Shown piece by piece: positions 692 to 21,977 of a stretch of 64,000 bases of DNA. Both the position numbers and the translations under genes were made by a program. The stretch spans positions 6,701,049 to 6,765,048 of the forward strand of contig JAXGYF010000001.1 of NCBI GenBank assembly GCA_040772385.1. Reading direction: 5' to 3'. The notes below the pieces were generated by a model. That model was not told the DNA's origin and made no database searches. It was given only the letters and a program-made list of their open reading frames with translations. Origin of the DNA: Candidatus Vecturithrix sp. Lineage in GTDB: Bacteria; Moduliflexota; Moduliflexia; Moduliflexales; Moduliflexaceae. Within the stretch, counting starts at the first letter, position 1; each line of letters opens with the position of its first letter.

Positions 692-3628
692 TCACTTTTC
701 ATTCTTCTTCCGCTGTATCCACCGCCAGCCTTCACCAGCCCATAACACAACAGAGGTTCCTAAAATAATCAGAACCCATTCTTGCAAGGCAAGCGGAACA
801 GTTCGGAAAGCCGTTCCTCCGACCTGGATGATAAAAATCTGCCCGATAAAAATAGCGGAAGCGATCGCAACGAAACCTTTGTTTTCCATGAGACGATCAA
901 AGGCAGAATGCGTTAAACTAAGACAACGCGCATTAAACATATTCCAAAACTGACACATCACGAATATCGTGAAAAAGATGGTCAGTTCATGAGTACTGAC
1001 AACGCCATCACGCTGGATATAAATGAGTAGTCCCACAAAGAAAATCAGAAAAGCGGAAGCGACCGTTAAAATATTTTTCGTCATGGCTTTTGTGAGAATA
1101 AAATCGTGTGGGTCGCGCGGCGGACGTTTCATCACATCCCAATGCGGCGGTTCTGTGGCTAAGGCTAAGGCTGCAAAGGTATCCATAATCAAATTCACCC
1201 ACAACATTTGCGTCACCGTAAGCGGAATTTTCACTCCAATAAACGGACCAAGGAGCGCAATGCCTAAAGCTGCGACATTGATCGTTAATTGGAAAAGAAT
1301 AAAACGCTGAATATTTTCATATAACGACCGTCCCCACATCACGCCTTTGACAATGCTGGAAAAGGAATCATCCAACAGCACAATGTCGCTCGCTTCTTTC
1401 GCGACTGAAGTCCCGGTTTTGCCCATTGAAAGTCCGACATTCGCGTAATTCAAGGCAGGAGCATCATTCGTGCCGTCGCCTGTAACGGCAACGACCTGTT
1501 TACGCTTCTGGAGTAATTTGACCAGACGCATTTTATCTAAAGGCCGCGCGCGTGAGAGCACTTTCAAATTTGTCACAACCTGTTCAGCGTCTTCATCGGA
1601 TAGCTGCTCGAATTCCCGTCCTGTGAGATGGCGATCGCCCGTATCGCTTTCCTCCCATAAGTGAATCTGCCGTGCAATCTCTTTCGCCGTCTCCGAATTG
1701 TCGCCAGTGACAATCGTCACCTTAATCCCGGCGTTGCGACAGGTTTGAATGGCTTCCGGAACTTCAGGCCGGATCGGATCCGCAATCGCGACAAAGCCAA
1801 GCCAGATCATGTCACGGGTAATCTCTTCGATCTCAGTATGATCGGCAGGCGCATCATGATAGGCAAACGCCAGGGTACGCATTCCGCGTTGCTGATACCT
1901 GTGTAGTTTGGATTCAATATCAGCTTTTTCTGCTTCCCGGAAAGCTTGTTCACCTTCTGGCGTCAGAATACGGGTACAGTGACTCAGAATAATTTCAGGC
2001 GCGCCTTTAATGTGCAGAATACGGGTATTTGTACTTGACGATATTCCCAGGGTTGCCATATACTTCCGATCTGTCGAAAATGTCCACTGATAGCTGACCG
2101 GAAACTCATCGCGCTGCAGCACATAATCAATCCCCAGATTCTCAAGCCAGAGTAACAGCGCGCCTTCAGTCGGATTTCCAAGCGGCAGAGAGGTTCCAGA
2201 ACTGCGATCCAGGTGCGCGGTCGTATTTGCAGCAATCGCCTCGACAATCAGGCGTTCTCCTTGAGTTTGTTGTTCTTTGGTAAGCGTTGAATTTTCGCCA
2301 AGACAAGGAAAACTCACTTCATGGACCTGCATTTGATTGAGTGTTAAGGTTCCGGTTTTATCAGAACAGATCACGGTTGCCGCGCCAATAGTTTCACAGG
2401 CATGCATCCGGCGCACCAGGTTGTTGGCTGCCGTCATTTTACGCATACTGTACGCCAGACTCAGGGTGACGCTCATAGCCAAGCCTTCAGGCACAGCCAC
2501 AACAATAATGGTCACGGCGATCATAAAATAGGTCAGAAAATTTCGCCCGATCTCCGCCGGTATCCAGCTTTCTGAAGTTCCGGGCGTGAGACCAACCAGA
2601 TATCCGAAAAACGTGCCAATGAGCAGAATCCCCAGTCCAATGCCAGCCGTTTTGGCCCAACCGATTAAGCTATCATTCTCAAGCCAGTCTGGAGCTTGCA
2701 GTTCTTTGCCGAACAATTCAAATCCGTCGTAAAGAATGGGCAGCCATACCCGCACCAGAGCGATGATAACCGCGATTTTCAACACACCGACAAAATACCA
2801 TTGATGCAAACTTAACTGTAATTCTCCGGTGAATATATCACGAATGACAAGAGCGATATAAATTAACGCTGCCACAGTAAAGCCCACCACGCCGATTAAC
2901 TTGCTCAGGCGTTCGAGTTGGATATTCAGCGGAGTTTCTTCTTCAGTCTCCTCGGCGGCAGTCCGCGCGGTTTTTCCAACTTCGGTCGTATCGCCGACCG
3001 CCGAGATTTGCATGATGCCGTGTCCATCGGCTACCATTGTTCCCCGATATAACCTGTCGCGAGCGTAGGCAGTTTCCTCAATCGGCTGTATAGCGACTTC
3101 TTCACGCGATACCTTCTGGACCGGAATTGACTCACCGGTTAAACACGCTTCGTTGACATGAAAAGAGACCGCTTCCAAAATCTGACCGTCGGCCGGAATC
3201 TCTTCTCCTAATTCCACCAGAACAATATCACCCACAACCAAATCTTTTTTGGGCACTGTTGTAATGTTACCATCGCGAATCACTTTCACAGGCACTTCAT
3301 CGTTCACCTGATTCAGGATATCAAATTCCTTATTTGCCTTATATTCATTTAAAAACGCTAAGGTCGTCGCCAGCAAAATCGCAAGAATAATGCCGATGCC
3401 TTCAGCATATTTTCCATCAGCGATACCCACGCCAACCGCAATAATTGCGGCAATAATCAGAATACGAATGACGGGATCGTCGAATTTTTCCAATAAAAGT
3501 TTCCACCAGGGATCACGTTCCGGCGGAGTCAGGATATTACTGCCGTATTTTTGACGACTGGCTTCAACCTCAGCCGAGGTTAAACCTTTAAAACGCCCTG
3601 TGAGCTGCTTGTGACTTGTTTCTGCCAT
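692..3628 (-). CDS. P-type cation-transporting ATPase (type II, Ca2+/Mg2+-like)
   Basis: Motifs CSDKTGTLT, VTGDNSETA and VTGDGTNDAPAL are present, with about 10 TM segments. Start placed at MAETSHKQL behind GGAGAA; the longer ORF (to 3751) reads through the upstream palindrome, translating it as EKPGFWEKPGFF. Confidence 0.85.
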   Translation of the reverse strand: MAETSHKQLTGRFKGLTSAEVEASRQKYGSNILTPPERDPWWKLLLEKFDDPVIRILIIAAIIAVGVGIADGKYAEGIGIILAILLATTLAFLNEYKANKEFDILNQVNDEVPVKVIRDGNITTVPKKDLVVGDIVLVELGEEIPADGQILEAVSFHVNEACLTGESIPVQKVSREEVAIQPIEETAYARDRLYRGTMVADGHGIMQISAVGDTTEVGKTARTAAEETEEETPLNIQLERLSKLIGVVGFTVAALIYIALVIRDIFTGELQLSLHQWYFVGVLKIAVIIALVRVWLPILYDGFELFGKELQAPDWLENDSLIGWAKTAGIGLGILLIGTFFGYLVGLTPGTSESWIPAEIGRNFLTYFMIAVTIIVVAVPEGLAMSVTLSLAYSMRKMTAANNLVRRMHACETIGAATVICSDKTGTLTLNQMQVHEVSFPCLGENSTLTKEQQTQGERLIVEAIAANTTAHLDRSSGTSLPLGNPTEGALLLWLENLGIDYVLQRDEFPVSYQWTFSTDRKYMATLGISSSTNTRILHIKGAPEIILSHCTRILTPEGEQAFREAEKADIESKLHRYQQRGMRTLAFAYHDAPADHTEIEEITRDMIWLGFVAIADPIRPEVPEAIQTCRNAGIKVTIVTGDNSETAKEIARQIHLWEESDTGDRHLTGREFEQLSDEDAEQVVTNLKVLSRARPLDKMRLVKLLQKRKQVVAVTGDGTNDAPALNYANVGLSMGKTGTSVAKEASDIVLLDDSFSSIVKGVMWGRSLYENIQRFILFQLTINVAALGIALLGPFIGVKIPLTVTQMLWVNLIMDTFAALALATEPPHWDVMKRPPRDPHDFILTKAMTKNILTVASAFLIFFVGLLIYIQRDGVVSTHELTIFFTIFVMCQFWNMFNARCLSLTHSAFDRLMENKGFVAIASAIFIGQIFIIQVGGTAFRTVPLALQEWVLIILGTSVVLWAGEGWRWIQRKKNEK

Positions 3629-3656
3629 AATGTTGTTTTCTCCTTCTCTGTCGTTA

Positions 3657-3692
3657 AAGAAACCGGGTTTTTCCCAAAAACCCGGTTTCTCT
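3657..3692. repeat. PRE-family palindrome GAAACCGGGTTTTTCCCAAAAACCCGGTTTC, about 30 nt 5' of the ATPase RBS
   Basis: Inverted repeat read directly; same core as the other copies. Confidence 0.6.
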
Positions 3693-3696
3693 GTCA

Positions 3697-4224
3697 TTAC
3701 ATTGAACTGATAAGCCATCTTGCCAATCCTATTTTGGGGCCAAGCCACCATAAACCATACATCACAAGAACCGCATACACTGAACTGACGAGATCATCAA
3801 GTAAAATTCCCCAAGCGCCGTGAATTTGTTGATCGACCTGTCTGGCAGGCGGAATTTTGATAATGTCAAATATTCTGAATAACAAAAATCCCCAGAGCGC
3901 AACCTGCCAGAGCTGTCCTTGATGAAAAAGAAGCGGTACGAGTAAATACCCGGCCACTTCATCCAACACAAAATGTCCCGGATCTTCTTGCTGCCAATAG
4001 GCCACAGCCCAGGGCGTCAACCAGTTATTCGCCGCACAGACCAGAAAAAATACCACGAGAAGTGCGGGCCATTGCAGACTGAAAGGCAAAGTCAATACAA
4101 TCACAACATGCAGGATAACCCCTAATAATGTGCCGAACGTTCCGGGAGCAAAGGGCATCAAACCAAGTCCGAAAGCCGAACCAATAAGAAGGTACGCATA
4201 ATAGTTCTTTTGTTGTTTTTCCAT
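3697..4224 (-). CDS. pgpA: phosphatidylglycerophosphatase A
   Basis: About 175 aa polytopic protein with PGTFGTL and DIIKIPPA signatures typical of PgpA. Confidence 0.75.
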   Translation of the reverse strand: MEKQQKNYYAYLLIGSAFGLGLMPFAPGTFGTLLGVILHVVIVLTLPFSLQWPALLVVFFLVCAANNWLTPWAVAYWQQEDPGHFVLDEVAGYLLVPLLFHQGQLWQVALWGFLLFRIFDIIKIPPARQVDQQIHGAWGILLDDLVSSVYAVLVMYGLWWLGPKIGLARWLISSM

Positions 4225-6661: not shown

Positions 6662-6664
6662 TCT

Positions 6665-7831: not shown

Positions 7832-7844
7832 GTCTGCTTGCCTT

Positions 7845-8645: not shown

Positions 8646-8834
8646 TTTTCAACCCCGCCCCTGGCCCATCCCAAGAGAAAACGAGAAAATTCTCCCCCTC
8701 TCCTCTGGGGATGGAGCGGGGGAGGGGTTTTTCAAGAAATTTTAGCATAAGCTACTCAGGCATTGTATTAATACTCTTTAAAGTAATCAAGTTTTGTCAG
8801 GATATTTCGGTTCTTGTCAACATATTTTTCATTC

Positions 8835-8870
8835 TCCCGTGTAGAAGAAACCGGGTTTTTCACAAAAATC
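8835..8870. repeat. PRE-family palindrome GAAACCGGGTTTTTCACAAAAATCCGGTTTC
   Basis: Read from sequence; downstream of the 8877 gene stop and upstream of the neuB promoter region. Confidence 0.6.
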
Positions 8871-8876
8871 CGGTTT

Positions 8877-10223
8877 CTATTCCTGACGTTCGATCATCTG
8901 CCGCAAAATATTGACGATCCGTTCAGTAGCATGTCCATCGCAACGAATATACTCCTGTAAAAACGCCTGTCGTTCTGCCTCCAATTTGCTGCGAAGGGCA
9001 GAATCTTCAAGCACCCGACGTACAGAGGGGAGCAAATCGGACTGTCGGATCACATGCCAGGTTCCTCCGGCCTTTGCCCACATATCATAACCGGGAGTCT
9101 GGTAATAATCAAAGGTCAGCGTGGGTGTTCCTAAAATATGAGCATCAAACACAATAGTTGATCCCTGGCAGATCAACAGATCGCTGATGGCAATCAGTTT
9201 AGCGGTTTCATACCGGCGAATCACTGTAAAAGTCCCGGAATGATCTTGTAAATATGGTAAAGCCTCAGATTCATCACGTGGATGAACTTTGACCAGTAAA
9301 TGAAATGCCTCATTCAGGCTGAGTAATTGGGCGATGGTCTCGTGCAAATAAGCGTTCATCTGATCCATCGTAACATGTCCGGCCCGTGTACCAGCTTTAA
9401 TATGAGAAACAGGCGGCGCACCGAGCAACAGTAATCGCCTTTCCGCTGGTGCGCCGATCGCCTGGCAGATCTGTTCGCGCTCTGTGATTTTCCACTGCAC
9501 TCCGTTTTGAATCACCAGATCATGCCGCGGATGTCCTGTCGTCAGAATTTTGACAGGGTTCACTCCAGCCTTTAACAAGATACGCCGGTAATGTTCACCT
9601 GTGACCGCAACATAATCAGCCTGTCCACCGCCTAGAATCCAGGGATTTTCGGGATAGTTGGCAAACAGACGCATTCCTAAAATTGCTGAAGGCGGCTGCC
9701 AGAATACCGGTTGACCATCAACATGCTTGACGGCCTGAGGCGCAAGCCATGCAGCGCTGCGCCGCAAAATTTGTTCCGAGAATGATAGGCTGTGATGATT
9801 ACTCCGCTTCTGCCGCCAGGTCAGCATGGTTTCGGCATCATACGTTGCCGCCCACATAAGGACCAACGAGGGGATGCGACGCTCTTTGGCCTGGCTGACC
9901 AGAAAGGCTTCGACGTAGCGGCGATCATCGGTCAACACAAAGGCTGAGGGGTGAATTTCGTCGCAGAATTGCTGCGCAAAACGGCGCAGACCCCAGTTTT
10001 CTCGGAGAAATTGGAGCACGCCGCCAGTGAGATGCTGTCCCCATAAAAAATGCGGCATGCGCCGGGCAGGCAGATCAAATTCTGCACATACCGACCCGCA
10101 GGTCTGATCATTGGACGGCAAAAGAAAAAGAGGCTCGTCTCCCGAAGCCCGGAGTTGCTCAGCAATCGGCACGAACGTGCGAATCGCCTCATGATAATGA
10201 GGCATAAACACAATTATTCCCAT
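8877..10223 (-). CDS. capsule/glycan biosynthesis protein (second KpsC/KpsS-like or glycosyltransferase, tentative)
   Basis: 448 aa soluble protein adjacent to the nonulosonate cluster; family not verifiable by eye. Confidence 0.35.
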   Translation of the reverse strand: MGIIVFMPHYHEAIRTFVPIAEQLRASGDEPLFLLPSNDQTCGSVCAEFDLPARRMPHFLWGQHLTGGVLQFLRENWGLRRFAQQFCDEIHPSAFVLTDDRRYVEAFLVSQAKERRIPSLVLMWAATYDAETMLTWRQKRSNHHSLSFSEQILRRSAAWLAPQAVKHVDGQPVFWQPPSAILGMRLFANYPENPWILGGGQADYVAVTGEHYRRILLKAGVNPVKILTTGHPRHDLVIQNGVQWKITEREQICQAIGAPAERRLLLLGAPPVSHIKAGTRAGHVTMDQMNAYLHETIAQLLSLNEAFHLLVKVHPRDESEALPYLQDHSGTFTVIRRYETAKLIAISDLLICQGSTIVFDAHILGTPTLTFDYYQTPGYDMWAKAGGTWHVIRQSDLLPSVRRVLEDSALRSKLEAERQAFLQEYIRCDGHATERIVNILRQMIERQE

Positions 10224-10368: not shown

Positions 10369-10935
10369 TTATCCGATCAGAGCGTTGGCTCCTGGAATTT
10401 TGTTGACGAATGTCCCTAAATCCATGATCTCATTCATGTTCACTAATTTTGCGCCCATAGGACTGGTGTTATCAATTTTGCATATAACAGCCACATGGCC
10501 TTTTTCACTGGCATTCAACGGCACTTCCACTTCTTCGCCGCGGTCGTTCATCACGATAACCGAGCCATCATAGGAGCCGAAAGCCGAGGCGATTTTTTTT
10601 GAGGCGTCGGTATAATTCAGGGCCACGATATAGAGTTCAGCTAGATCGTCTAATTTTGTAATTCGCAAAATTTCCTGATTATCCCCGCCTTTGGCGCCGA
10701 CGCCGGCATCGCCGCTTAGTTCAATAAAGGGGAAACTATTCAAGCTCCCCATTGAGCCGCCCGGATACCCGTCTGAAAATATTCCGCCGGGCTGACCGGT
10801 TTTGCTTTTGTAAAAGGCCATCAAATCCAGATCAACATCGGCCGTCCAGCGTAAGGTCACCATCAATTGTTTAACGGATACATACGCTTCTTCCCCTTTT
10901 TTATTCAATGTCACTTTGCGTTTAATTTCTGCCAT
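10369..10935 (-). CDS. TerD-family (Ca-binding stress protein-like) protein, paralog 1
   Basis: About 189 aa. Aligns by eye to the TerD pattern (VTL.K, LRWTADVDLDLMAF, SGDAGVGAKGGDNQEIL, FGSYDGS). Start MAEIKRKV chosen by homology to the paralogs at 18397 and 20436. Confidence 0.65.
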   Translation of the reverse strand: MAEIKRKVTLNKKGEEAYVSVKQLMVTLRWTADVDLDLMAFYKSKTGQPGGIFSDGYPGGSMGSLNSFPFIELSGDAGVGAKGGDNQEILRITKLDDLAELYIVALNYTDASKKIASAFGSYDGSVIVMNDRGEEVEVPLNASEKGHVAVICKIDNTSPMGAKLVNMNEIMDLGTFVNKIPGANALIG

Positions 10936-11057
10936 AATAGTTCTGAGTTCGCTCAACAATGTCTCTGAACAGACACAGATAACGGTTCAGCGAACATTTT
11001 CCTCCTTTGGAAATCATCAAACAACTCAGACGTGTCCGACAAAGTCCGACAAGTCCT

Positions 11058-11082
11058 GTACCGCCTGAAGGCGGAACTACAA
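11058..11082. repeat. Partial copy of the GTAGTTC-family hairpin (CCGCCTGAAGGCGGAACTACAA)
   Basis: Read from sequence. Confidence 0.4.
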
Positions 11083-11113
11083 ACTCATACAAATTTCTGT
11101 CCCAGCGTGATAA

Positions 11114-12625
11114 TTATGTATAATTCAGAATCGCAGATTTCTGCTGGCCTTCGGCCACCACCGTGACCGAAAGCATTTGTTCCTCATCTATTTTAAACGT
11201 CACTTCCACGTCCAACTTGCCGGCCGGCCTGGGAGGTAAGTCGGGAATGGAAATAGTACCAATATGAGAATGAGTATCTCTTCTAATCACCGGTCCGGCG
11301 CCTTGATAAATATCAATATCGAGAAAAGGTACATTATCCTGATATGTGGTAAACACTTGTTTAACTATACAGGGCGTACGATGATTGGCGGGGATCAGTT
11401 CTTTAAAATTACGCCCCTCTCGTTTGACGGTTTTAATACCAAGCGCATGACAGGTGCGGGTATAGATAGCGATCTCTTTATCAAAAAAGTTGCGATTATC
11501 CAAATACGCTGCGTACATGGCTGCGCCCTCGGCAATACTGGTTGAAGGGTTCGCGTTACTCCAGACTTTGGATTCACCGATGACATCGTCTAACAAGGCT
11601 TTCATACACGGAATCGCGCTTGAGCCTCCGACGCGAATGATGCGATCGACCTGAGAAGGCTTAATCCCGGATTTCGTCCAGAGATTGTGAATGATCTCTT
11701 TAATTTTTCTGACATAATGCTGAATCGATGCTTCAAACTCTTCCCGCGTCATTTCGCAATCAATATTTTTATCCGGGGGAATGATAAACGGCACAGATAC
11801 CCAACATTCGGTTGTGCTGCTGAGGGTTTTTTTAGCATCAATCGTAGCTTCCATCAATTTCTGACGCGATTGATTGAACTGAACCGGCGCCAGGCCATCT
11901 AACGAAAGTCGGTTCTTCTGCAAAATCAGTTCGGCAAAACAGGTATCAAAATCCATGCCGCCGAGCCGGTCGTCCCCACCCGTGCCCAACACTTCAAAAT
12001 TCAAACTTTTTCTGGTCTGCTCCAGACGAAAGAGAGTCAGATCAAAGGTTCCGCCGCCGAGATCGAACACCAAAATATTCTCGCTAAACTCTTTTTCAGG
12101 ATATTCTTCACTGAGCTGGTAGGCATAACATAAGGAAGCGGCAATCGGTTCCTGAATGACACCGATACAATTGATATTCGCCTTATCAGCCGCGATACGC
12201 GTGTTCTCGATCTGGTGCGCTTTAAAGTAAAAAGGAACTGTCACCACGCTTCCGCGACTGCTAAACACTCCTTTAGGAAATTTTGATTTGGCATCTTCAT
12301 AAATTTTTTCTAAAATAATCGCAGAAATTTCTACCGGACTGAATTCTTTACCGCCGAGCTTGACTTTTTGATTGACATCATCCATCAGGCGCTTGACGCC
12401 GACGATCATGTTTTCAGGCATGATCAAGCCCCTGCGATAGGCGATTTGCCCGACAATATATTCCTCTTTTTCAGGATTGTAATAGACGACCGATTGAGTG
12501 GTATCCTGCCCGGTTTTATTTTGAATGATGCGCGGCCCGCGGCCGTCAATCCAGCGGGCCAGAGCGCTGAACGTGGTTCCCAAATCAAAGCCTAGCACCG
12601 GATTCTTTTCGCTGTCAACAGCCAT
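11114..12625 (-). CDS. Hsp70-family ATPase, lid-less paralog A (503 aa)
   Basis: LGFDLGTTFS phosphate-1 motif and VFDLGGGTFD motif; NBD plus beta-sandwich SBD with no helical lid. RBS GGAGGAGAGG precedes the ATG. Confidence 0.85.
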   Translation of the reverse strand: MAVDSEKNPVLGFDLGTTFSALARWIDGRGPRIIQNKTGQDTTQSVVYYNPEKEEYIVGQIAYRRGLIMPENMIVGVKRLMDDVNQKVKLGGKEFSPVEISAIILEKIYEDAKSKFPKGVFSSRGSVVTVPFYFKAHQIENTRIAADKANINCIGVIQEPIAASLCYAYQLSEEYPEKEFSENILVFDLGGGTFDLTLFRLEQTRKSLNFEVLGTGGDDRLGGMDFDTCFAELILQKNRLSLDGLAPVQFNQSRQKLMEATIDAKKTLSSTTECWVSVPFIIPPDKNIDCEMTREEFEASIQHYVRKIKEIIHNLWTKSGIKPSQVDRIIRVGGSSAIPCMKALLDDVIGESKVWSNANPSTSIAEGAAMYAAYLDNRNFFDKEIAIYTRTCHALGIKTVKREGRNFKELIPANHRTPCIVKQVFTTYQDNVPFLDIDIYQGAGPVIRRDTHSHIGTISIPDLPPRPAGKLDVEVTFKIDEEQMLSVTVVAEGQQKSAILNYT

Positions 12626-12637
12626 GTCCTCTCCTCC

Positions 12638-12738
12638 TGGGAAACTACAGGGATTTCACATAATTCAGGGATAAAACATCCTTGCTTATGAGAAATCCTT
12701 GTAGTTTCATTGCGTCGGGTGAGCGCCCGTTCATGACA
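12638..12738 (-). promoter_or_regulatory. Conserved structured leader (family L) immediately 5' of the Hsp70-A RBS
   Basis: Nested inverted repeats GAAACTACAAGGATTTCTCATAAGCAAGGAT...ATCCCTGTAGTTTC plus the upstream TCATGAACGGGCGCTCA repeat that overlaps the grpE-like stop codon; 6 copies in the window. Confidence 0.55.
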
Positions 12739-13714
12739 ACTCCTGTGTTTCACTCTCATTCTTCACAACAACGACCTGAGCGGCTCGAAGTACCAGACGT
12801 TCACCGCGATACGCCATATAATCGTAGCCTTTTCTGGCGACCTCTTTAATCTGATCATTTTCCATATTGGGATCCGGCTCAACGGCTAATGGCTCATGGC
12901 GTTCAAAGTCAACTACGGTTCCCGGAGCAACATCCATCTCATGCACGTCAATTTGCTCAAAAACCCGTTCGAGTTCAGCACCAAGTTTCTGGTAAGTCTC
13001 ATACCAGACTGCCAGCGCCTCGGCATTTTCCGCATAGCGCTGCCGGAATTCTTCAATGCGCGGAGGCATCAGTTTCTGGCCGTCATAGATGCCATCAAGA
13101 ATGGGCAGCACTTGTTTTTCGAGGAAAGATAAAATCTGGTCTCTGCGATTTTTCACCAGATCGTTTGACAGGGAAACAATTTTGTAATTGTCTTTTCCGA
13201 TGGTCTTAAGCGTTTGCTGCATTTTTTGCAGCGCGAGGTCTTTTTCTGTCGTTTCCTCAAACAGCGTTCGCCATTGTTCTGCTTCTATCACACGTAACTC
13301 GCCAGGGCTCTCAAGATCCTCAGCCAGTTTTTTTAAACGCTCTCCTGGTGTGACCAGACGTTCCAGCATTCTACCGATAATTTCCAGCCCTTCTTGATGG
13401 TTTTTAATCTCTTTTTGCAACTCCTCAGGCCATGCCGCGACAAGATTTTGACTTTCAGCAATCATTGCTTTGGCTGCATTGGCTGCGCATTCGATTTCGG
13501 GCACTAATTTTTTCCCATAGGTTTCCCAATAACAGGCTTCTTCAAAATTCGCGTCATATAGCTGTCGATCTTCTTCGAGTTGCGCTTCCTCACTTTTTTT
13601 AGCGCTGGCAACTAATTCGTCAAGATCAAATTCAAACGGACGTTCCGGCGTCTCCTGCTTTTCTAAAATCGTCGGTTCTTCTTGAGCAGGAACCTGTGCT
13701 TCTGATGTTGTCAT
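12731..13714 (-). CDS. GrpE-like nucleotide exchange factor, elongated (327 aa)
   Basis: C-terminal FERHEPLAV...KGYDYMAYRGERLVLRAAQVVVV matches the GrpE beta-domain pattern (FDP.xHxAx ... KGY.L.GR.LRPA.V.V); a long acidic coiled-coil-like N-terminus; AGGAGG RBS. Confidence 0.6.
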   Translation of the reverse strand: MTTSEAQVPAQEEPTILEKQETPERPFEFDLDELVASAKKSEEAQLEEDRQLYDANFEEACYWETYGKKLVPEIECAANAAKAMIAESQNLVAAWPEELQKEIKNHQEGLEIIGRMLERLVTPGERLKKLAEDLESPGELRVIEAEQWRTLFEETTEKDLALQKMQQTLKTIGKDNYKIVSLSNDLVKNRRDQILSFLEKQVLPILDGIYDGQKLMPPRIEEFRQRYAENAEALAVWYETYQKLGAELERVFEQIDVHEMDVAPGTVVDFERHEPLAVEPDPNMENDQIKEVARKGYDYMAYRGERLVLRAAQVVVVKNESETQELS

Positions 13715-13741
13715 AGCACTTTCCTCCTGATAATAAGGCAG

Positions 13742-15322
13742 TTATGATTCTTTGATTTCCAATTCTTCCGAAGAGCCTGAACTACTCGCTCTGACTCTGA
13801 GTAAATTTTGCTGATCAATCTCAAATTTGACGGTAATCCGTTCCTGACCGCGAGGTTTCGGCGGGATGCCGCTCAAGAAAAATTCTCCGATACATTTGAC
13901 GCCTTCTGAGGAGACATATTCGACGTCATCAAGAGATTGATACACCCGAATCGCCAGTTCAGTCATATTATCGCGGGGGGTGCTGTAATCTTTTGTAGCA
14001 ACCACTGGTTGATCCGCCGGAATATCAATGCCTTTTCGGATAAGGCAGCTAAATCTGCCGCCGACCACTTCAATTCCCAGGTTGTGCGTCACTTTATCGT
14101 GTAATTCGATCTTAAACGCCGGGATATCATCAACTTCTTTCGGCACAAAATCAGCGTCTTGCGGCAGGTTCATGGTCGCTCCCAGAATTGCGGCCCCACG
14201 CGCAATCGCCGTATCCGGATCGATATCCGAATACGGTTCTCTGCCAAACATCTCCTGAAGCATCTCTTTGACCAGAGGCACTTTGGTCGAGCCGCCGACC
14301 AGAATGATGCGATCAACATCTCGAATCGTAAATTGAGCGGCATCCAGGGCCTTTTGCACAGCTTCTCTGGTGTCCATCACCAGATCGCGAATGACCTCAT
14401 TAAACTGTTCGCGCGTCACTTCCATCTCAACGTGATAAGGCGTGCCGCTTTCATCGTGAATAATATTGGGAATATGAATGCTGGCGCTCGAAGCTTCAGT
14501 AAGTTCGTGTTTGGCCTCCATCACGGCCTCTTTCAGTTTTTGCTGGGCGTTGCGGAGTTTATTTTCATTGATCCCCTGATCTTTTTTCAGATCGAGGATA
14601 TCAACGCCGGATTGTTCGCGTAACGTGCTGGCAACAATCGCCATCAGCCGTTCATCAAAGTCATCGCCGCCTAACTCCGAGATACCTTCTTTGGCCAGGA
14701 CGCTGAAGGATTTTTGATCATCTTGAGTCGAGTTGACCTGGAGAATCGAAACGTCAAAAGTACCGCCGCCGAGATCATAGACCAGAATCGTCTGATCGCG
14801 TTCTTTTTCCAGGGCATACGCATACGCGGCCGCCACCGGTTCTTCCAGCAGACGGAGTACCTCCAGATTCGCAAGTTCTGCGGCTTTCCTGGTGGCCTTC
14901 TTTTTGGCGTCGTCAAAATTGGCAGGAACACAGATGACTGCGTATTTGGGAAGACCGCCGAGTTCAAAGGCTTCATACTGCTGCACGCCTGCCGCGACTT
15001 TTGAGAGAATTTCGGCGGCAATATCGGCGGGGGTATAGACTCGCTCCGGCTGCCCGTCAAAAACTTTGGTCCAGGCTTCTCCCATTTTGCGTTTGATGGA
15101 GACCACTGTATTTTCAGGATCGATGATACTGCGCGATTTTGCCTGCTGTCCGACAAGGACGTCGCCATTCCTCAACACCGACACCACAGAAGGCAGCGTC
15201 TTGGCCCCATAAATTGGAATAATTTCAGACTGTCCGGCTTTATACACCGCAACAGCAGTATTGGTAGTGCCTAAATCGATTCCAAGAACATAGCCGCTAT
15301 AGGTTTCTTTTGTCTGACTCAT
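13742..15322 (-). CDS. Hsp70-family ATPase, lid-less paralog B (526 aa)
   Basis: LGIDLGTTNTAVAV and VYDLGGGTFDVS motifs. Confidence 0.85.
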   Translation of the reverse strand: MSQTKETYSGYVLGIDLGTTNTAVAVYKAGQSEIIPIYGAKTLPSVVSVLRNGDVLVGQQAKSRSIIDPENTVVSIKRKMGEAWTKVFDGQPERVYTPADIAAEILSKVAAGVQQYEAFELGGLPKYAVICVPANFDDAKKKATRKAAELANLEVLRLLEEPVAAAYAYALEKERDQTILVYDLGGGTFDVSILQVNSTQDDQKSFSVLAKEGISELGGDDFDERLMAIVASTLREQSGVDILDLKKDQGINENKLRNAQQKLKEAVMEAKHELTEASSASIHIPNIIHDESGTPYHVEMEVTREQFNEVIRDLVMDTREAVQKALDAAQFTIRDVDRIILVGGSTKVPLVKEMLQEMFGREPYSDIDPDTAIARGAAILGATMNLPQDADFVPKEVDDIPAFKIELHDKVTHNLGIEVVGGRFSCLIRKGIDIPADQPVVATKDYSTPRDNMTELAIRVYQSLDDVEYVSSEGVKCIGEFFLSGIPPKPRGQERITVKFEIDQQNLLRVRASSSGSSEELEIKES

Positions 15323-15335
15323 GATTGTTCTCCTC

Positions 15336-15412
15336 TGAAACTACAAGGATGACTCATAAGCAAGGATTTTTATCCCTGATTACCTGATTATGTGAAAATC
15401 CTTGTAGTACAT
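15336..15412 (-). promoter_or_regulatory. Family-L structured leader 5' of Hsp70-B
   Basis: GAAACTACAAGGATGACTCATAAGCAAGGATTTTTATCCCTG...GAAAATCCTTGTAG, nearly identical to the copies at 22343 and 12638. Confidence 0.55.
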
Positions 15413-15434
15413 GATTTCAGAAATAACGAGACAG

Positions 15435-15472
15435 GAGAAACCAGGTTTTCAGGAAAAAACCTGGTTTCTTCG
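15435..15472. repeat. PRE-family palindrome (variant GAAACCAGGTTTTCAGGAAAAAACCTGGTTTC) between Hsp70-C and the Hsp70-B leader
   Basis: Read from sequence. Confidence 0.6.
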
Positions 15473-15487
15473 TCGCGCCTCGACTCT

Positions 15488-17026
15488 TTATGTTGTCATC
15501 CTCACCTGCACGGTTTTAGATTTGGCGTCCCCATAGTTCAACATGTCATCTACTGTCGGCAGATCCAGGTCTCCATTGTGCGTTGCAGCATAGTTGATAA
15601 TCGGCAGAAGTTTTTCGCTGATCGGAAATTGGACGGCAGTAAAATGAATGATGCCGTCAGCGTCTAATTCGAAAATTGCCCCGACCGGGACAAGATTTTC
15701 CTGCGGCGGTGAAATGGGCAATTCGAGTTCTCCCAAATAGTGATTTTGCAGCGGATTAGGTTGTTCTCCTCGAAAGACGCGCATTTTTACAACTGGCTGT
15801 CCTGGATACCCGGTAGATCCAAGAAATCCGCCGCGACACGGATAACTGGTTTGGCGCGGAATAATTGCCCGAAACATCAACTGCTGCTGTTCGTTCAAGG
15901 CATCTATGCCGAGTGAGTGCCCGGTCACATCGGAAATTTCAATCGGCAGAGCTTCTTCCGCGGGTAAAAAGAGATTCGCCGCCACAATAGATGCGCCGTG
16001 TGATACGACCTCATCAACCCGATCGGCAATATACGGATCTTTGATCTGCTGGGCAATCACCTCGCGCACGGCCTTATTTTTGGTTGATCCGCCGACTAAA
16101 ATCACCCGGTCAATGTCGCGCGGCGTCAGGTTTGCGTCGCGCAAGACGGCTTTCATCGCCTGAATCGTACGTTGCAGCAGCGGATCGATCAGGCGGTTAT
16201 ATTCAGACAGCGAAATTTCGAGGCTCAAGGGATAGCCTAAACAGTCAGGAAGATTGATAAAGGCGCTTTCGGATTCTGACAATTCAATTTTGGCAGTTTC
16301 AGCGGCTTCTTTCAAACGTTGTTGGGCGATACGACCTTCCCGGGTGGTATTATTCAGCACATCAACCCCGGTTTTTTTTCTGAACGCTGCTGCCGCCCAA
16401 TTAATGATGGCCTGGTCAAAATCGTCGCCGCCGAGACGGCTGTCGCCGCCAACGGCCTTGACGTTAAAGTTATTCCCGCGAATTTCCAGAATCGAAACGT
16501 CAAACGTACCGCCGCCCAGGTCATAGACCATAATCGTCTGATCGCGCTCCTTATCCAACCCATAGGCAATTGCGGCGGCCGTTGGTTCGGGGAGCAGACG
16601 CAGAACGTTCAATCCGGCTTCTTCCCCGGCTTTTTTCGTATCTTCGCGCTGAGCCTCGGTAAAATAGGCCGGCACCGTAATGACCGCATCCCAGATTTCT
16701 TCTTTCAGCACGCTTTGCGCGCTTTCAACCAATTGTTTTAAGATCATACTGGCAATGTTGACCGGCGTCAGCGTTTTAAAGCGGATACGATAGGATTTGC
16801 TGCGATCGCCCATAAAGCGTTTTGATGAAAAAATCGTATTCTCCGGATCAATCAACATTCTGGATTTGGCGGCCTGACCGATAAGCACATCCCCCTCTTC
16901 ACGAAATGAGATGACCGAGGGCATGGTTGTGCGTCCTTTGATGAGAAGCGTCTCAGCAACCCCGCGCCGATAAATAGACACCACAGAATTGGTAGTGCCA
17001 AGATCAATCCCCACTGCGTAAGCCAT
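15488..17026 (-). CDS. Hsp70-family ATPase, lid-less paralog C (about 512 aa)
   Basis: Start at MAYAVGIDLGTTNS behind AAAGGAGAA; VYDLGGGTFDVS motif. Confidence 0.85.
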   Translation of the reverse strand: MAYAVGIDLGTTNSVVSIYRRGVAETLLIKGRTTMPSVISFREEGDVLIGQAAKSRMLIDPENTIFSSKRFMGDRSKSYRIRFKTLTPVNIASMILKQLVESAQSVLKEEIWDAVITVPAYFTEAQREDTKKAGEEAGLNVLRLLPEPTAAAIAYGLDKERDQTIMVYDLGGGTFDVSILEIRGNNFNVKAVGGDSRLGGDDFDQAIINWAAAAFRKKTGVDVLNNTTREGRIAQQRLKEAAETAKIELSESESAFINLPDCLGYPLSLEISLSEYNRLIDPLLQRTIQAMKAVLRDANLTPRDIDRVILVGGSTKNKAVREVIAQQIKDPYIADRVDEVVSHGASIVAANLFLPAEEALPIEISDVTGHSLGIDALNEQQQLMFRAIIPRQTSYPCRGGFLGSTGYPGQPVVKMRVFRGEQPNPLQNHYLGELELPISPPQENLVPVGAIFELDADGIIHFTAVQFPISEKLLPIINYAATHNGDLDLPTVDDMLNYGDAKSKTVQVRMTT

Positions 17027-17035
17027 AATATTCTC

Positions 17036-17118
17036 CTTTAAAACTACAGGAATTGATCTATAAGCAAGAATCATTCCGAAGAGCATTCTTGCTTATAGAT
17101 CAATTCCTGTAGTTTCAT
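17036..17118 (-). promoter_or_regulatory. Family-L leader 5' of Hsp70-C (long near-perfect palindrome CTACAGGAATTGATCTATAAGCAAGAAT...ATTCTTGCTTATAGATCAATTCCTGTAG)
   Basis: Read from sequence; ends with GTAGTTTTAAAGGAG at the RBS. Confidence 0.55.
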
Positions 17119-17127
17119 ACCCTCTTG

Positions 17128-17826
17128 TCACTCTACAACTGTAAATTCACGTGCGCGTTGTAATTTGATCCTCAATTGTGAGGCAAAAGCAAAAATATAT
17201 CTGAGCGCAATCGCAAAACCTAACCCTTGCGCATGTTCAATGGAAATCATACTGTTCGCCACGCCAATCACCTCGCCGTTCTCGTTCAGAATGGGGCCGC
17301 CGCTATTCCCCGGATTGAGCGCCACATCTGTCTGAATAAAACTTGCGCCCTGAATCAGGCGATTACGGTTGCTGATAATGCCTTGCGACACGGTAAAATC
17401 TAAACCGAGAGGATGGCCGAGCGCGTACACTCGCTGACCCGTCTGAATCGAAATCGGATCTGCAAAGGTCAGGCAGGGCGCCTGAAGTTGAGGGATTTGA
17501 AGCATCGCCAGATCATGTAACGGATCTTGCGCCAGCACTGGCGATTGCCAGATTTCACCACTGGAAGAGACAAGCTCAATCGTTTCTGAATGAATCACAT
17601 GGCGACATGTGAGAAGATGACCATCCGAACTCACAACAAACCCGGTTCCAATCCCATGAGCGCTGCGTAAAAGGAAAACAGCGTCTTCTGCACTTCGGAG
17701 AACGTCTTCGATTGATCTTCCAGATGTCATCATCACATTGCCCCTCTCGGAAATAGCCTCCGGAATTCCAGCATATTTGTGAGCAACTCCAGAGTCAAGG
17801 CGATAGAGCAGGTATATTTTATGCAT
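17128..17826 (-). CDS. trypsin-like (S1 family) serine protease, no PDZ domain
   Basis: TCRHVI (His), DLAML (Asp) and GNSGGP (Ser) catalytic signatures. The start ATG overlaps the TerD-2 stop (ATGCATAA). Confidence 0.7.
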   Translation of the reverse strand: MHKIYLLYRLDSGVAHKYAGIPEAISERGNVMMTSGRSIEDVLRSAEDAVFLLRSAHGIGTGFVVSSDGHLLTCRHVIHSETIELVSSSGEIWQSPVLAQDPLHDLAMLQIPQLQAPCLTFADPISIQTGQRVYALGHPLGLDFTVSQGIISNRNRLIQGASFIQTDVALNPGNSGGPILNENGEVIGVANSMISIEHAQGLGFAIALRYIFAFASQLRIKLQRAREFTVVE

Positions 17827-18397
17827 TCACAATTAAATGCGCACCGGGAATCGTCTCAGCAAATTTAGCAAGATCCATAATATCATTCTTATTAATCAAC
17901 TTAGCCCCCATGGGGCTGGTATTATCAATTTTACAAATCACAGCGACATGCCCTTTATCCCGAGAATTCAAGAGTACTTCGACCGCATCGCCCTTATCAT
18001 TCGTCACGGTGACAGAGCCGTCATAATTGCTAAACGTTGAGGATTTATTATCAACCGCGTCGTCATAATTAATGGTGACAATATACAATTCAGCCATGTC
18101 ATCCAATTTGGTGATACGAATAATCTCTTCATTTTCGCTTTGGGCGTCTTTATTATCATCAAATCCTTCATCGCCGCTGAGTTCAATAAAGGGAAAACTG
18201 TTTAAACTCCCTAAATCACCGCCTGGATAATTGTCTGAAAACACACCGCCAGTTCGCCCATCTTTGGTTTTATAGAAAGTCATCAGATCAAGATCCACCG
18301 CCGCAGTCCACTTCAACGACACCATGAGTTGTTTTACTGAAACATACGCTTCTTCATCTTTGGTGGTGAGTGTCACCTTACGTTTCAAGGTTGCCAT
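17819..18397 (-). CDS. TerD-family protein, paralog 2
   Basis: MATLKRKVTL...VDLDLMTF...SGDEGFDDNKDAQSENEEII; GGAGG RBS before the ATG at 18397. Confidence 0.65.
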   Translation of the reverse strand: MATLKRKVTLTTKDEEAYVSVKQLMVSLKWTAAVDLDLMTFYKTKDGRTGGVFSDNYPGGDLGSLNSFPFIELSGDEGFDDNKDAQSENEEIIRITKLDDMAELYIVTINYDDAVDNKSSTFSNYDGSVTVTNDKGDAVEVLLNSRDKGHVAVICKIDNTSPMGAKLINKNDIMDLAKFAETIPGAHLIVNA

Positions 18398-18413
18398 ATT
18401 TTTCCTCCAAACA

Positions 18414-18462
18414 GGAGTGCGAAAGCTCTGCTTTCGCAACGAAAGCAGAGCTTTCGCACTCC
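18414..18462. repeat. Family-S perfect hairpin GGAGTGCGAAAGCTCTGCTTTCG-caa-CGAAAGCAGAGCTTTCGCACTCC
   Basis: 23-bp perfect arms read from sequence, between the vWA and TerD-2 genes. Confidence 0.6.
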
Positions 18463-18470
18463 TATATTCT

Positions 18471-19244
18471 TTAATATAACTTTTTGTGCCTGGCTTCTCG
18501 TAACCAGGACGGAAACTCTGTCAGCATGCGCTTATACAGTTCATCGTCTGAAATACTGCCAATATCGTTTAAGGCAAAAAAATTAGCATTGTCAATAAAG
18601 CGGCCCGACATCGTGTCTAATTTTTCAAGAAAGCTGAATTTTCCTTTACCAATGCCGACAAACTGCCAGAAAATCGGAGATTTGGAGGCCTGTACAATAG
18701 CCTTCTCAGCTTCCGGCGGGTCATGATTATCCCCATCCGTGACAAATAGCACATACGCCGGGTCACCCGGTTCGGTGGTATATTTTGTGACAATCCGGTG
18801 AAGAACGCCGGCATAATTTGTGCTGCCTTCAAGCCGGTAGTGGCTGGTAATTTCTCGTTCGACAAACTCGAAAAAATTTTGTTCCGATAACTCGCCAACT
18901 TCATAGTCATCCTTGCCAAACAAAAAAATATCAACCGCGCCGTTATCGTCGAATTTCACTCCCAGGGCCAATAAGCGTTCGCAGACTTCCTGGACAATGC
19001 CTTGTTCGAACATTTTACGCATTGAAACCGAAATATCCAGGGCCAAAGCCACCCGCGCCCGTTGCCCTTCTAATCCGGCGTTTTTTACGGCAAGTGTCAC
19101 TTTCTTTTTTAAGTGCACCAGGTGTTCTTCAGCTTTTTTTCGTTTGAGCTGCACCGTTTGACTCATCTTTTGTTTCTTGCACCCATCGAACATACCGTTA
19201 TGATCCAAACGCCCATGTTTTCCGGGCAGCAAGACTCCTTTCAT
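18471..19244 (-). CDS. von Willebrand factor A domain protein, TerF/TerY-like
   Basis: MIDAS motif LALDISVSM, FVTDGDNHD, WQFVGIG; Lys-rich N-terminal segment. The start is uncertain (19244, 19166 or 19304). Confidence 0.6.
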   Translation of the reverse strand: MKGVLLPGKHGRLDHNGMFDGCKKQKMSQTVQLKRKKAEEHLVHLKKKVTLAVKNAGLEGQRARVALALDISVSMRKMFEQGIVQEVCERLLALGVKFDDNGAVDIFLFGKDDYEVGELSEQNFFEFVEREITSHYRLEGSTNYAGVLHRIVTKYTTEPGDPAYVLFVTDGDNHDPPEAEKAIVQASKSPIFWQFVGIGKGKFSFLEKLDTMSGRFIDNANFFALNDIGSISDDELYKRMLTEFPSWLREARHKKLY

Positions 19245-19248
19245 CGGC

Positions 19249-20436
19249 TTAATCTTTTTTGCCGGCGACCCATTGCAGTCCCCATTTATAGGCTTGATCG
19301 ACATCCTGATGACCGCGGAAATATTGAACGATCTTAGTCACCTTAAAAACATCATGCACATTTTCCAACAACGCAATGGCGCACATAGGCATCCCATCGC
19401 GGGGATCGTCGAGGTGTACGAGAATATCGGGCGAGCCGGCTTGTTTGATCGTCACCACGCCATCAGCCTGCGACCAGTTTGCCACACCTTCATAGATGTA
19501 CGAATAGACCAGAATTCGCTTGAATTCCTGCATGTAATCACCGTTAATACGCAAATTTTCTCCTTCAGCCTGAGCGCCGGTGCGGTCATCACCGCAGTGA
19601 AAAATATAGGGCGGTTGGTTATACGCGCCAAAGGTTTTCCCCAGAGGTTGTACCGCAGATTTGATGCCGTTTCTCAATTCAAAAAGACAGCCCAGATCAA
19701 GATCAATCGCCTGCCCGCCGCCGCCGAACATTTTAGAGAGTAAGCCGCCAGATGGTTTCGGCTGAGGACGCTGATTCCAATTCAGATTGACTAAGATTTC
19801 TCCGACTTTCCCGCCGCTTTTCGGTTTGAGTGTGACCGATTCGCCTTTTTTCTTCAGCACAATTTTCGAGGCTAAGTTCAGGTGATTGGCTCCCGGAATG
19901 TTCGCTTGAAATTCCGCCATGCTCATAATCCGGTTTTCATTAACCAATTTTGCGCCCATAAATCCGGAATTATCAATTTTGGCAATCACCGCCACAACGC
20001 CAGACTGAGAAGAATCCAGAGGCACGGACACATTTTCCCCTTTATCATCAACGACCGTGACTTGCGCATCGTACTTGCTGAAACGCGATTCTTGCCCCTG
20101 ACTGGCATCAGTAAAATTAATTGTGCAAATATAGACCTCGGCCATATCATCTAATTGCGTAATACGGATCACCTCTTCATTTTGACCGCCGGTAGCGCCA
20201 ACGCCGGCATCTGCGCTGAGTTGGATAAAAGGAAAGGTGTTCAAACTGCCCATATCGCCGCCCGCATAATTGTCGGAAAAAATGCCGCCCATACGTCCAT
20301 CTTTGGTTTTATAAAAGGCCATCAGGTCGAGGTCAACAGAAGCAGTCCATTGGAGGGAGACCATCAACTGTTTGACAGAGACATACGCTTCCTCGCCTTT
20401 AGTCTTCAGCGTGACCTTTGGTTTTAACGTTGCCAT
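19249..20436 (-). CDS. tandem TerD-family protein (diverged N-terminal TerD-like domain + canonical C-terminal TerD domain)
   Basis: N-domain MATLKPKVTL...VDLDLMAF is paralogous to the 10369 and 17819 genes. C-domain carries AIDLDLGCLF and the Ca-site-like GDDRTGAQAEGENLRI. AGGAGG RBS. Confidence 0.65.
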   Translation of the reverse strand: MATLKPKVTLKTKGEEAYVSVKQLMVSLQWTASVDLDLMAFYKTKDGRMGGIFSDNYAGGDMGSLNTFPFIQLSADAGVGATGGQNEEVIRITQLDDMAEVYICTINFTDASQGQESRFSKYDAQVTVVDDKGENVSVPLDSSQSGVVAVIAKIDNSGFMGAKLVNENRIMSMAEFQANIPGANHLNLASKIVLKKKGESVTLKPKSGGKVGEILVNLNWNQRPQPKPSGGLLSKMFGGGGQAIDLDLGCLFELRNGIKSAVQPLGKTFGAYNQPPYIFHCGDDRTGAQAEGENLRINGDYMQEFKRILVYSYIYEGVANWSQADGVVTIKQAGSPDILVHLDDPRDGMPMCAIALLENVHDVFKVTKIVQYFRGHQDVDQAYKWGLQWVAGKKD

Positions 20437-20658: not shown

Positions 20659-20786
20659 GGAGTGGCAAAGCTCGGCTTTGCCATCTGGCGAAGCGTTCAG
20701 CGAGCCGGGTACGCCGGTGCGGCGATGGCTCGGTTCGCTGAATGTTTCGCCTGCTACCACCCGCCAAAGCCGAGCTTTGGCACCCC
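20659..20786. repeat. Family-S compound palindrome (GGAGTGGCAAAGCTCGGCTTTG ... CAAAGCCGAGCTTTGGCACCC with an inner GGCGAAGCGTTCAGCGAGCC/GGTTCGCTGAATGTTTCGCC repeat) in the divergent promoter region
   Basis: Read from sequence. Confidence 0.5.
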
Positions 20787-21931: not shown

Positions 21932-21977
21932 GACTGCCAAAGCTCTACTTTCGCCGCCAAAGCAGAGCTTTGGCACT
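21932..21977. repeat. Family-S hairpin GACTGCCAAAGCTCTAC...GCAGAGCTTTGGCACTC
   Basis: Read from sequence. Confidence 0.5.

Follow-up and report, generated by a model that had tools for sequence, protein, structure and literature searches.

The DNA analysed here is a window of 64,000 nt (the whole stretch; all coordinates are window positions) on contig JAXGYF010000001.1 of Candidatus Vecturithrix sp. Its subject is a block of nine co-oriented minus-strand genes spanning 10369..20433, in which three Hsp70 genes (Hsp70A, Hsp70B and Hsp70C) and a gene for a GrpE-like protein are accompanied by genes for TerD-like proteins, a vWA protein and a serine protease. All block proteins were predicted to be soluble. 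The closest relatives were found in Candidatus Vecturithrix (KSB3/Modulibacteria) with 72-97% identity, and all nine genes are syntenic there. The genes are listed below; names beginning with L denote related loci.

19249..20433, minus strand: two-domain TerD-like protein, 394 aa; its N-terminal half belongs by alignment to the TDL family, the C-half is a second, more divergent TerD-like domain
18471..19166, minus strand: TerF/copine-type vWA protein with an intact metal-ion-dependent adhesion site (MIDAS; DISVS...T...D), from PF10138 and Copine matches and a MIDAS alignment
17819..18397, minus strand: TerD-fold protein TDL2, 192 aa, from an AlphaFold2 model and Foldseek
17128..17826, minus strand: PDZ-less HtrA-like trypsin-fold serine protease, cytoplasmic, from a Trypsin_2 match, the conserved triad and the lack of a transmembrane (TM) segment
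15488..17026, minus strand: Hsp70C, 512 aa; nucleotide-binding domain (NBD), beta-sandwich of the substrate-binding domain (SBD-beta) and a conserved tail of ~40 aa, without lid, from Pfam, alignments and tree
13742..15322, minus strand: Hsp70B, 526 aa; NBD, linker with acidic insertion and SBD-beta, without lid, from Pfam, alignments and tree
12731..13714, minus strand: long-GrpE family member, 327 aa, from a PF01025 match, family alignment and model
11114..12625, minus strand: Hsp70A, 503 aa; the most divergent paralog, always directly after the long GrpE, from Pfam, alignments and synteny
10369..10935, minus strand: TerD-fold protein TDL3, 188 aa; 68% identity to TDL2 and same position in L001, L002 and L007

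The start of the two-domain TerD-like protein at 20433 is backed by orthologs of 394-395 aa in L001, L002 and L095. The open reading frame (ORF) of the vWA protein reaches 19304, with a probable start at 19166 (orthologs 231-247 aa), and the probable start of the protease lies near 17733 (200 aa). The ORF of Hsp70C extends to 17086; because its orthologs comprise 512 aa, the start at 17026 was taken as the right one.

The three Hsp70 proteins had been described in the original prediction, a note made from the sequence of this DNA, as paralogs of 503, 526 and about 512 aa which keep the NBD motifs and the beta-sandwich and miss the lid. ORFs, lengths and minus-strand orientation were confirmed, and the quoted motifs FDLGTTFS and IDLGTTNTA are present. 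All three proteins match Pfam HSP70 (PF00012) with E-values of 1.6e-83 (A), 6.5e-113 (B) and 1.3e-119 (C), and the matches end at profile positions 491, 495 and 485 of 599, respectively. For alignment to E. coli DnaK, a reference sequence was used whose register was verified against residues 1-605 of PDB 2kho. In the MAFFT alignment, Hsp70A ends at DnaK position ~504 and Hsp70B at ~502 plus 4 aa; residues 79-523 of the 526-aa Hsp70B align to DnaK 97-499. The C-terminus of Hsp70C consists of the beta-sandwich, after which the conserved tail of ~40 aa is far too short for a lid. Judged from these alignments, the alpha-helical lid (SBD-alpha, ~508-602 in E. coli) is absent from A, B and C, and the possibility that a normal lid had been overlooked was ruled out.

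The catalytic and phosphate-binding residues D8, K70, E171, D194, G196-198, T199 and D201 (DnaK numbering) are invariant in A, B and C, and D8, K70, E171, D194, T199 and D201 are invariant also in the A-D orthologs, including a fourth paralog of other phyla, Hsp70D. The hydrophobic substrate pocket is mostly retained in A, B and C in the alignment to DnaK. Within lineages, the mean identity across phyla was 50-55% for SBD-beta versus 59-65% for the NBD. Since SBD-beta is thus nearly as conserved as the NBD, the substrate domain is argued to be functional. In place of the interdomain linker D-[VI]-[VL]-LLD, which was retained in 12/12 canonical controls, each of the lineages A, B, C and D has a sequence of its own; the linkers in the window are IAIYT (A), IELHD after the acidic insertion (B) and IEISD (C). 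At the J-protein contact site of DnaK (R167/N170/T173), lineage A carries G/Q/I, and R167 and T173 are kept in C.

Equivalog models were used to place the paralogs. The three proteins scored 286, 397 and 410 bits against TIGR02350 (DnaK, cut-off 822.55), 284, 401 and 423 bits against NF001413 (DnaK, cut-off 648) and 263, 352 and 360 bits against TIGR01991 (HscA, cut-off 708.55), all below the cut-offs. By the PF00012 matches and these scores, A, B and C are assigned to the Hsp70 superfamily, but to neither canonical DnaK nor HscA. Pairwise identities are 32% (A-B), 28% (A-C) and 40% (B-C), compared to 31-39% with DnaK. By neighbour-joining and reciprocal phmmer scores, the Hsp70s form four separate lineages (A, B, C and D), each monophyletic across phyla and outside the canonical DnaK clade. 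The proposal that the window paralogs are not recent duplicates holds on both counts, mutual identity and monophyly, and they represent ancient orthologous lineages. Hsp70D is sister to C and carries a VWA domain in place of the lid.

The GrpE-like protein matches PF01025 with an E-value of 9.3e-11 and 42.1 bits (cut-off 25.8) over residues 151-318, corresponding to profile positions 16-165 of 165. The same profile is matched by 13/14 members of its family, and the family alignment contains the motifs LPxxD, F(D/E)xxxHE and GY...LR(P/A)AxV of the four-helix bundle and beta-domain in the C-terminal part. Against the NCBIfam GrpE equivalogs (cut-offs 176-266 bits) the best score was 25.7 bits, below all cut-offs. 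The acidic helical N-terminus of about 200 aa in the original prediction was roughly right: residues 1-195 are acidic (net charge -17) and family-specific, and the N-terminal region is modelled as two helices of 60-70 residues (31-93 and 158-226) plus shorter ones. The length of 327 aa, by comparison, had been taken as unusual for a GrpE, and this did not hold within the family, of which the window protein is actually the shortest member. At 50% identity, about 335 clusters out of 1.84 billion representatives belong to the long-GrpE family; the matches extend over almost all of the window protein and lie C-terminally in proteins of 300-750 aa. From these alignments, the window protein is best described as the family core without the variable acidic extension. 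An exact-sequence look-up of the GrpE-like protein gave no record, and Foldseek of its model against the PDB returned generic long-helix bundles only.

A J-domain partner was searched for at several levels. No Pfam DnaJ match was obtained for the block proteins, the HPD motif is absent from every one of them, and phmmer with three J domains gave no match in any ORF of ≥ 50 aa across the 64-kb window. The absence of a DnaJ-like gene, noted before for the block, therefore extends to the whole window. Canonical dnaK, dnaJ and grpE were not found within the window either. Using the same scanning pipeline, a J domain was found in 0/37 cassette loci versus 27/28 canonical grpE-dnaK operons. The E. 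coli GrpE and J-domain query sequences detected their counterparts in the canonical control operons.

The arrangement is conserved far beyond Candidatus Vecturithrix. Another 21 cassette loci came from a metagenome scan for which the long-GrpE alignment served as seed, and 59 ordinary grpE-dnaK(-dnaJ) operons that it also returned were used as controls; a contig scan with the Hsp70A alignment was swamped by canonical DnaK, and 7 of 80 loci were cassette members. A fixed gene order, [vWA-like x2-3]-[trypsin]-C-[D]-B-long GrpE-A, is shared by 37 loci, whose hosts belong to at least six phyla (Modulibacteria, Cyanobacteria, Planctomycetota, Armatimonadota, Desulfobacterota and Bacillota). In every locus where the sequence continues, Hsp70A comes next after the long GrpE, and in a minimal two-gene locus of Desulfonema magnum only the long GrpE-A pair is left. 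The Hsp70A family comprises proteins of 495-506 aa in more than 120 clusters at 90% identity, which are 53-94% identical to the window protein and occur in Desulfonema, Ca. Magnetomoraceae, Armatimonadota, Cyanobacteria, Planctomycetota and Bacillota. On PLSDB plasmids, neither a long GrpE nor an Hsp70A-family member was found, only canonical DnaK at ~33% identity. The annotation 'DnaK7' of a Vecturithrix ortholog was considered as a sign of many paralogs and rejected, as it may be a transferred name.

Several loci show variants of this arrangement. In Armatimonadota (L012:2310-4841 and L095:1-1194), Hsp70C has a 334-aa N-terminal extension with a weak zinc-ribbon match, and a further Hsp70-VWA fusion of 692 aa lies ~15 kb upstream of the cassette protease gene. 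Clostridium bovifaecis (L020:11503-14004) has a tandem Hsp70A duplicate (A') followed by a protein with DUF4236 and TPR, which is possibly an alternative adaptor. In Ca. Magnetomoraceae, which are multicellular magnetotactic bacteria, a neighbourhood resembling a defence island directly follows the cassette kinase gene (L099:12544-20274); it encodes an AAA_21/AAA_15 ATPase, a TIR-domain protein, a ParA/AAA_35 protein and a STAND-like protein of 1114 aa with AAA_35 and WD40.

The original prediction had named 'TerD' among the neighbours of the Hsp70 genes. This stood at the level of the fold, but not as a Pfam sequence match: the TDL proteins gave no match to TerD (PF02342) even at E ≤ 10, and the 394-aa protein matched no Pfam or NCBIfam model. 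Using hhalign, the TerD-like proteins were aligned to true TerD with an E-value of 3e-4 and a probability of 39%. The AlphaFold2 model of TDL2 has a pLDDT (predicted local distance difference test) of 87.8, and its top Foldseek matches are the TerD structures 3ibz (E = 1.7e-6), 2qz7 and 2qng, with a probability of 1.0 and E-values of 1.7e-6 to 1e-4. A PDB sequence search with TDL2 gave no match. A bridging sequence of C. bovifaecis (L020:14345-14980) matches both the C-half of the 394-aa protein and true PF02342 TerD, and relatives of TDL2 are named 'stress response protein' or TerA in the source databases.

The vWA protein matches PF10138 (vWA-TerF-like) with an E-value of 1.6e-68 and 231 bits (cut-off 29.4) as well as Copine (E = 6e-10), and its MIDAS is intact. 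The protease matches Trypsin_2 (E = 1.2e-33), and the H/D/S triad is present in all orthologs; neither a signal peptide nor a TM segment was predicted. Against the DegP/HtrA model TIGR02037 it scored 152 bits, below the cut-off of 416, and PDZ is absent. Among the evaluable loci, vWA genes were found in 11/17, trypsin-like genes in 10/17 and, after Hsp70A, a Ser/Thr kinase fused to InlB-type repeats in 17/24. TerD-fold genes occur together with vWA-TerF in the window, L001 and L002. In Armatimonadota, TDL genes, a weak TerB-like gene and vWA-like genes lie upstream of the cassette, and the C. bovifaecis cassette includes TerD and a fusion of vWA-TerF and TerD. A Desulfitobacteriaceae contig carries a kinase-TerD fusion, three further TerD genes and a TerD-like gene, PRTase_2, StiP/PELOTA and HAD. 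The link to Ter genes thus recurs independently. In PADLOC-DB v2, PDC-M61B matches for two Hsp70s were weak (26-33 bits), the vWA protein had no match, and the matches of the protease were to generic domain models.

One more gene of the window is possibly associated with the cassette:

692..3751, minus strand: P-type Ca2+-ATPase, 1019 aa, with orthologs near the cassette in other loci

These orthologs lie about 2.4-3.6 kb downstream of the cassette in L012 (Armatimonadota) and L013 (cyanobacterial, 1216 bits), and one is present in L001. In the window, the Ca2+-ATPase gene is parted from the cassette by a sialic-acid/capsule insertion. The proximity hints at either a Ca2+ link or the co-transfer of a larger region.

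Compared to the canonical DnaK-DnaJ-GrpE system, the cassette has in common the actin-like NBD with catalytic residues, the beta-sandwich SBD with a hydrophobic pocket, and the GrpE motifs. It differs by the lack of a lid and of a J protein, by the replaced linker and by three to four obligately co-inherited paralogs; its GrpE is extended by about 160-450 aa of helical sequence specific to the family, and all proteins stay under the equivalog cut-offs. HscA and HscC have their own J proteins. Lid-less 'DnaK derivates' are already acknowledged and unexplained in the literature (PMC13580251, PMC8265645). E. coli HscA, HscC and YegD and the 15 Hsp70s of Myxococcus including SglK and StkA resemble the cassette proteins as additional non-housekeeping paralogs with shortened or missing lids (PMC13580251, PMC8265645), but are described as single genes of mostly unknown role, whereas a fixed multi-paralog operon with its own GrpE is found here across phyla. 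Eukaryotic Hsp110-Hsp70 is similar in having a diverged paralog with an altered linker and lost J-responsiveness which works with another Hsp70. However, Hsp110 keeps and extends the lid and is itself the exchange factor, whereas in the cassette the lid is deleted and a GrpE is present. In CoCoNuT systems, Hsp70-like domains have degenerate ATPase motifs (PMC11090510).

Among multi-gene systems, the GAP1-N2 GTPase-centric systems (Kaur, Burroughs, Iyer and Aravind 2020; PMC7159879) likewise combine Hsp70 and GrpE in an accessory setting with vWA and kinase themes, and sometimes contain a second Hsp70 lacking the peptide-binding domain (PMC7159879). Their defining components, however, are GAP1-N2 GTPases and FNIII-repeat proteins with a fusion to DnaJ or TPR, and the cassette has neither; Pfam searches of the nine block genes gave no GTPase, FNIII or DnaJ domain. 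Ter clusters and the TerY-P triad share TerD-fold proteins and the TerF/TerY-type MIDAS vWA with the window, and the kinase, PRTase_2, StiP/PELOTA and HAD with related loci. In contrast to them, the window is without TerC, TerB, TelA, PP2C and kinase, and its TerD-like proteins fall outside Pfam TerD. A TerY-P triad was not found: the block has no kinase, PP2C or PADLOC TerY-P match, and the related loci have a kinase but no PP2C. As described in the literature searched, the Ter system has no Hsp70/GrpE engine. MoxR-vWA ternary systems also pair an NTPase chaperone with a MIDAS vWA adaptor, often with protease effectors, and the Hsp70D-VWA fusion makes such a pairing explicit; since the NTPase of the cassette is an Hsp70 and not an AAA+ MoxR, this is an analogy only. 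The KSB3 genome paper with its supplements, a paper on horizontal gene transfer in Desulfonema and a sludge proteomics paper do not mention the cassette genes.

The cassette is, with high confidence, considered specialised, non-housekeeping and independent of J proteins. The view of the original prediction that this is a specialised machine rather than housekeeping DnaK is borne out by lineages outside the DnaK clade, by scores of 286-410 bits versus a cut-off of 822.55, and by the fixed order in 37 loci. A mechanism in which Ter-type partners are remodelled is a tentative proposal that we would sooner doubt than adopt. The compromise of the general and the specific reading, a J-independent Hsp70/GrpE engine acting on cassette-encoded partners in a Ter-type stress or defence response, is evenly balanced in our judgement. 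The same middling credence is given to the view that the block represents a self-contained Hsp70 cassette which has spread horizontally.

In the engine outlined above, three ATPase-competent lid-less Hsp70s (A, B and C) would be cycled by a dedicated long GrpE, which would act as nucleotide-exchange factor and probably also as a helical dimeric scaffold. Because Hsp70A and the long GrpE are always adjacent, Hsp70A is the most likely candidate for an obligate partner of the long GrpE. ATP hydrolysis would presumably be triggered by cassette-encoded partners instead of DnaJ, because the hydrophobic linker is lost, J contact residues are lost in A and B, and the cassette encodes no J protein. In lid-truncated DnaK, loss of the lid speeds substrate exchange and allows binding of folded partners. 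Without a lid, the paralogs may accordingly exchange substrates fast and engage folded partners. The putative clients are the neighbouring TerD-fold modules of the Ca2+-binding type, the MIDAS vWA adaptor and the PDZ-less HtrA-like protease, which the machine would assemble, hold or release in a Ter-type response to stress (ions, membrane) or phage. A 'clamp' role is treated as a hypothesis. A bolder version, which we consider unlikely, is a hetero-oligomeric machine of three to four obligately co-inherited lid-less paralogs on a long dimeric GrpE scaffold. Its ATPase would be set off not by J proteins but by phosphorylation or by partners that depend on metal, namely TerD-fold Ca2+ modules and MIDAS vWA domains, one of which replaces the lid in paralog D.

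Several points weigh against the reading as a J-independent engine in a Ter-type response. The clients and the trigger are guesses from the gene neighbourhood. TerD-type genes were found in only ~6/20 evaluable loci and the version with the kinase is commoner; 'Ter-type' may therefore describe only a sub-variant of the cassette. The Ca2+-ATPase is near the cassette in only 4/20 evaluable loci, window included, which is a weak link. Hsp70C, which keeps R167 and T173, might use a J protein encoded elsewhere in the genome. The putative GrpE homology rests on the Pfam profile and the motifs: the beta-domain has low confidence in the monomer model, and no solved GrpE was retrieved from the PDB by sequence or family profile search, only designed helical repeats. 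In the literature searched, which did not extend to the main comparative-genomics survey of Ter, no published description of a multi-paralog long-GrpE cassette or of its coupling to Ter was found.

The strongest competing explanation, although rather unlikely, is an anti-phage or conflict system in which the Hsp70s and the vWA protein form an NTP-dependent 'thresholding' pair of chaperone and co-chaperone, similar to MoxR-vWA, which restrains the cytoplasmic trypsin-like protease effector or the kinase until infection releases it and abortive infection follows. Ter operons and TerY-P modules have been linked to phage resistance (summarised in PMC11090510), and HSP70 with GrpE has been reported inside GTPase-centric conflict systems (PMC7159879). 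The genomic context points the same way in two places, namely in Ca. Magnetomoraceae, where AAA_21, TIR and STAND/WD40 genes follow the cassette, and in D. magnum, where the cassette lies among an Eco57I-type methylase, ABC-ATPase pairs and a PD-(D/E)xK gene; the window and most loci, however, are outside defence islands. The patchy spread over phyla is consistent with horizontal transfer, but no relatives were found on PLSDB plasmids, and Hsp70A is 53-70% identical across phyla, which is unusually conserved for an arms race. The protease matches the PADLOC models of RT-Protease and of the LmuA protease, whereas no PADLOC system model was matched and the PDC-M61B matches (26-33 bits) are weak. 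An association with the cell surface is given little credence: the cassette would regulate the surface, exopolysaccharide (EPS) or gliding, like SglK and StkA of Myxococcus, Hsp70-like regulators of EPS and social motility (PMC4319316, PMC8265645). In the window and in Vecturithrix, the cassette has NeuB/NeuC/NeuA and capsule genes immediately downstream of it, but polysaccharide genes adjoin the cassette only in Modulibacteria and not in the other loci; several hosts are filamentous (Vecturithrix, Desulfonema, Pseudanabaenaceae), yet unicellular Planctomycetota and Clostridium are also among them.

Two further explanations concern the relation to the housekeeping chaperones. The lid-less paralogs could be co-chaperones of housekeeping DnaK, that is, Hsp110-like NBD partners or exchange factors which boost disaggregation under lifestyle-specific stress. 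This was proposed for NBD-containing DnaK paralogues with shortened or deleted lids (PMC13580251), and the diverged linker and the lost J-responsiveness parallel Hsp110. It is nevertheless quite improbable, if slightly less so than the surface model, since a GrpE of the cassette's own would be superfluous if the paralogs themselves were exchange factors, the SBD-beta pockets are conserved, and the joint inheritance of three to four distinct lineages and the vWA, protease and kinase genes suggests dedicated partners rather than help for DnaK. That the genes are the organism's housekeeping Hsp70/GrpE set, unusually truncated, would fit the lack of canonical dnaK, dnaJ and grpE within the 64-kb window. 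However, the scores are far under the DnaK, HscA and GrpE equivalog cut-offs, the paralogs fall outside the canonical clade and the cassette is accessory and patchily distributed; moreover, among the genomes covered by a 2026 review (PMC13580251), every one with derivatives also had a bona fide DnaK. We regard this last explanation as hardly credible.

Additional features were noted around the cassette. Between it and PgpA plus the Ca2+-ATPase lies the sialic-acid/capsule set (4353-10223, minus strand) with NeuB, a NeuC-like epimerase, CMP-NeuAc synthetase, a capsule-synthesis protein and a glycerophosphotransferase-like protein; this arrangement was seen only in Modulibacteria loci. On the other side lies a divergently transcribed gene of 279 aa (20861-21700, plus strand) without Pfam match and with a Pro-rich middle. 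Both Vecturithrix-type loci keep it beside the cassette, with scores of 508 and 478 bits, and it may encode a local regulator. Within the block, one non-coding element was recorded:

18415..18461, no strand assigned: copy of a REP-like (repetitive extragenic palindromic-like) repeat, located between the genes of the vWA protein and TDL2 and perfectly palindromic, with a stem of 20 bp

The core of this repeat, GCGAAAGCTCTGCTTTCG, and its inverted copy gave 8 matches versus 0.11 expected, at 18415-18461, 20764-20781, 21936-21974 and 34375-34413. The palindrome at 18415-18461 could be an intra-operon hairpin, an attenuator or an RNA-stability element. Elsewhere in the window, an encapsulin shell protein (31548-32399, plus strand; Linocin_M18, E = 9.5e-84), a 428-aa protein with two cyclic-nucleotide (cNMP)-binding domains (29530-30816, minus strand) and an 808-aa fusion of a rhomboid protease with TPR repeats and a zinc ribbon at the C-terminus (44288-46714, plus strand) are encoded. 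The region 53241-58415 (minus strand) encodes a glycyl-radical enzyme (PFL-like and Gly_radical, 870 aa), a zinc alcohol dehydrogenase and a radical-SAM activase, and looks like a glycyl-radical enzyme gene set.

Hsp70 biology is organised around three components, namely Hsp70, J protein and exchange factor, and a lid that traps the substrate. The cassette is a natural experiment across phyla, in which lid and J protein are gone and the linker is rewritten, while ATPase, peptide pocket and GrpE are kept. Knowing what triggers it would show how much rewiring the Hsp70 cycle tolerates, and would also give a role to the many unexplained bacterial 'DnaK derivates'. Clostridium bovifaecis BXX, a cultured organism with a complete genome and the TerD-type version, could ease experiments. 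Through its recurrent coupling to TerD, TerF-vWA, StiP and PRTase genes, the cassette also gives access to the long-unsolved Ter mechanism of stress and phage resistance. A metal-fired hetero-oligomeric machine, if true, would be a new mode of Hsp70 action and the first biochemical handle on systems of the TerD/TerF type.

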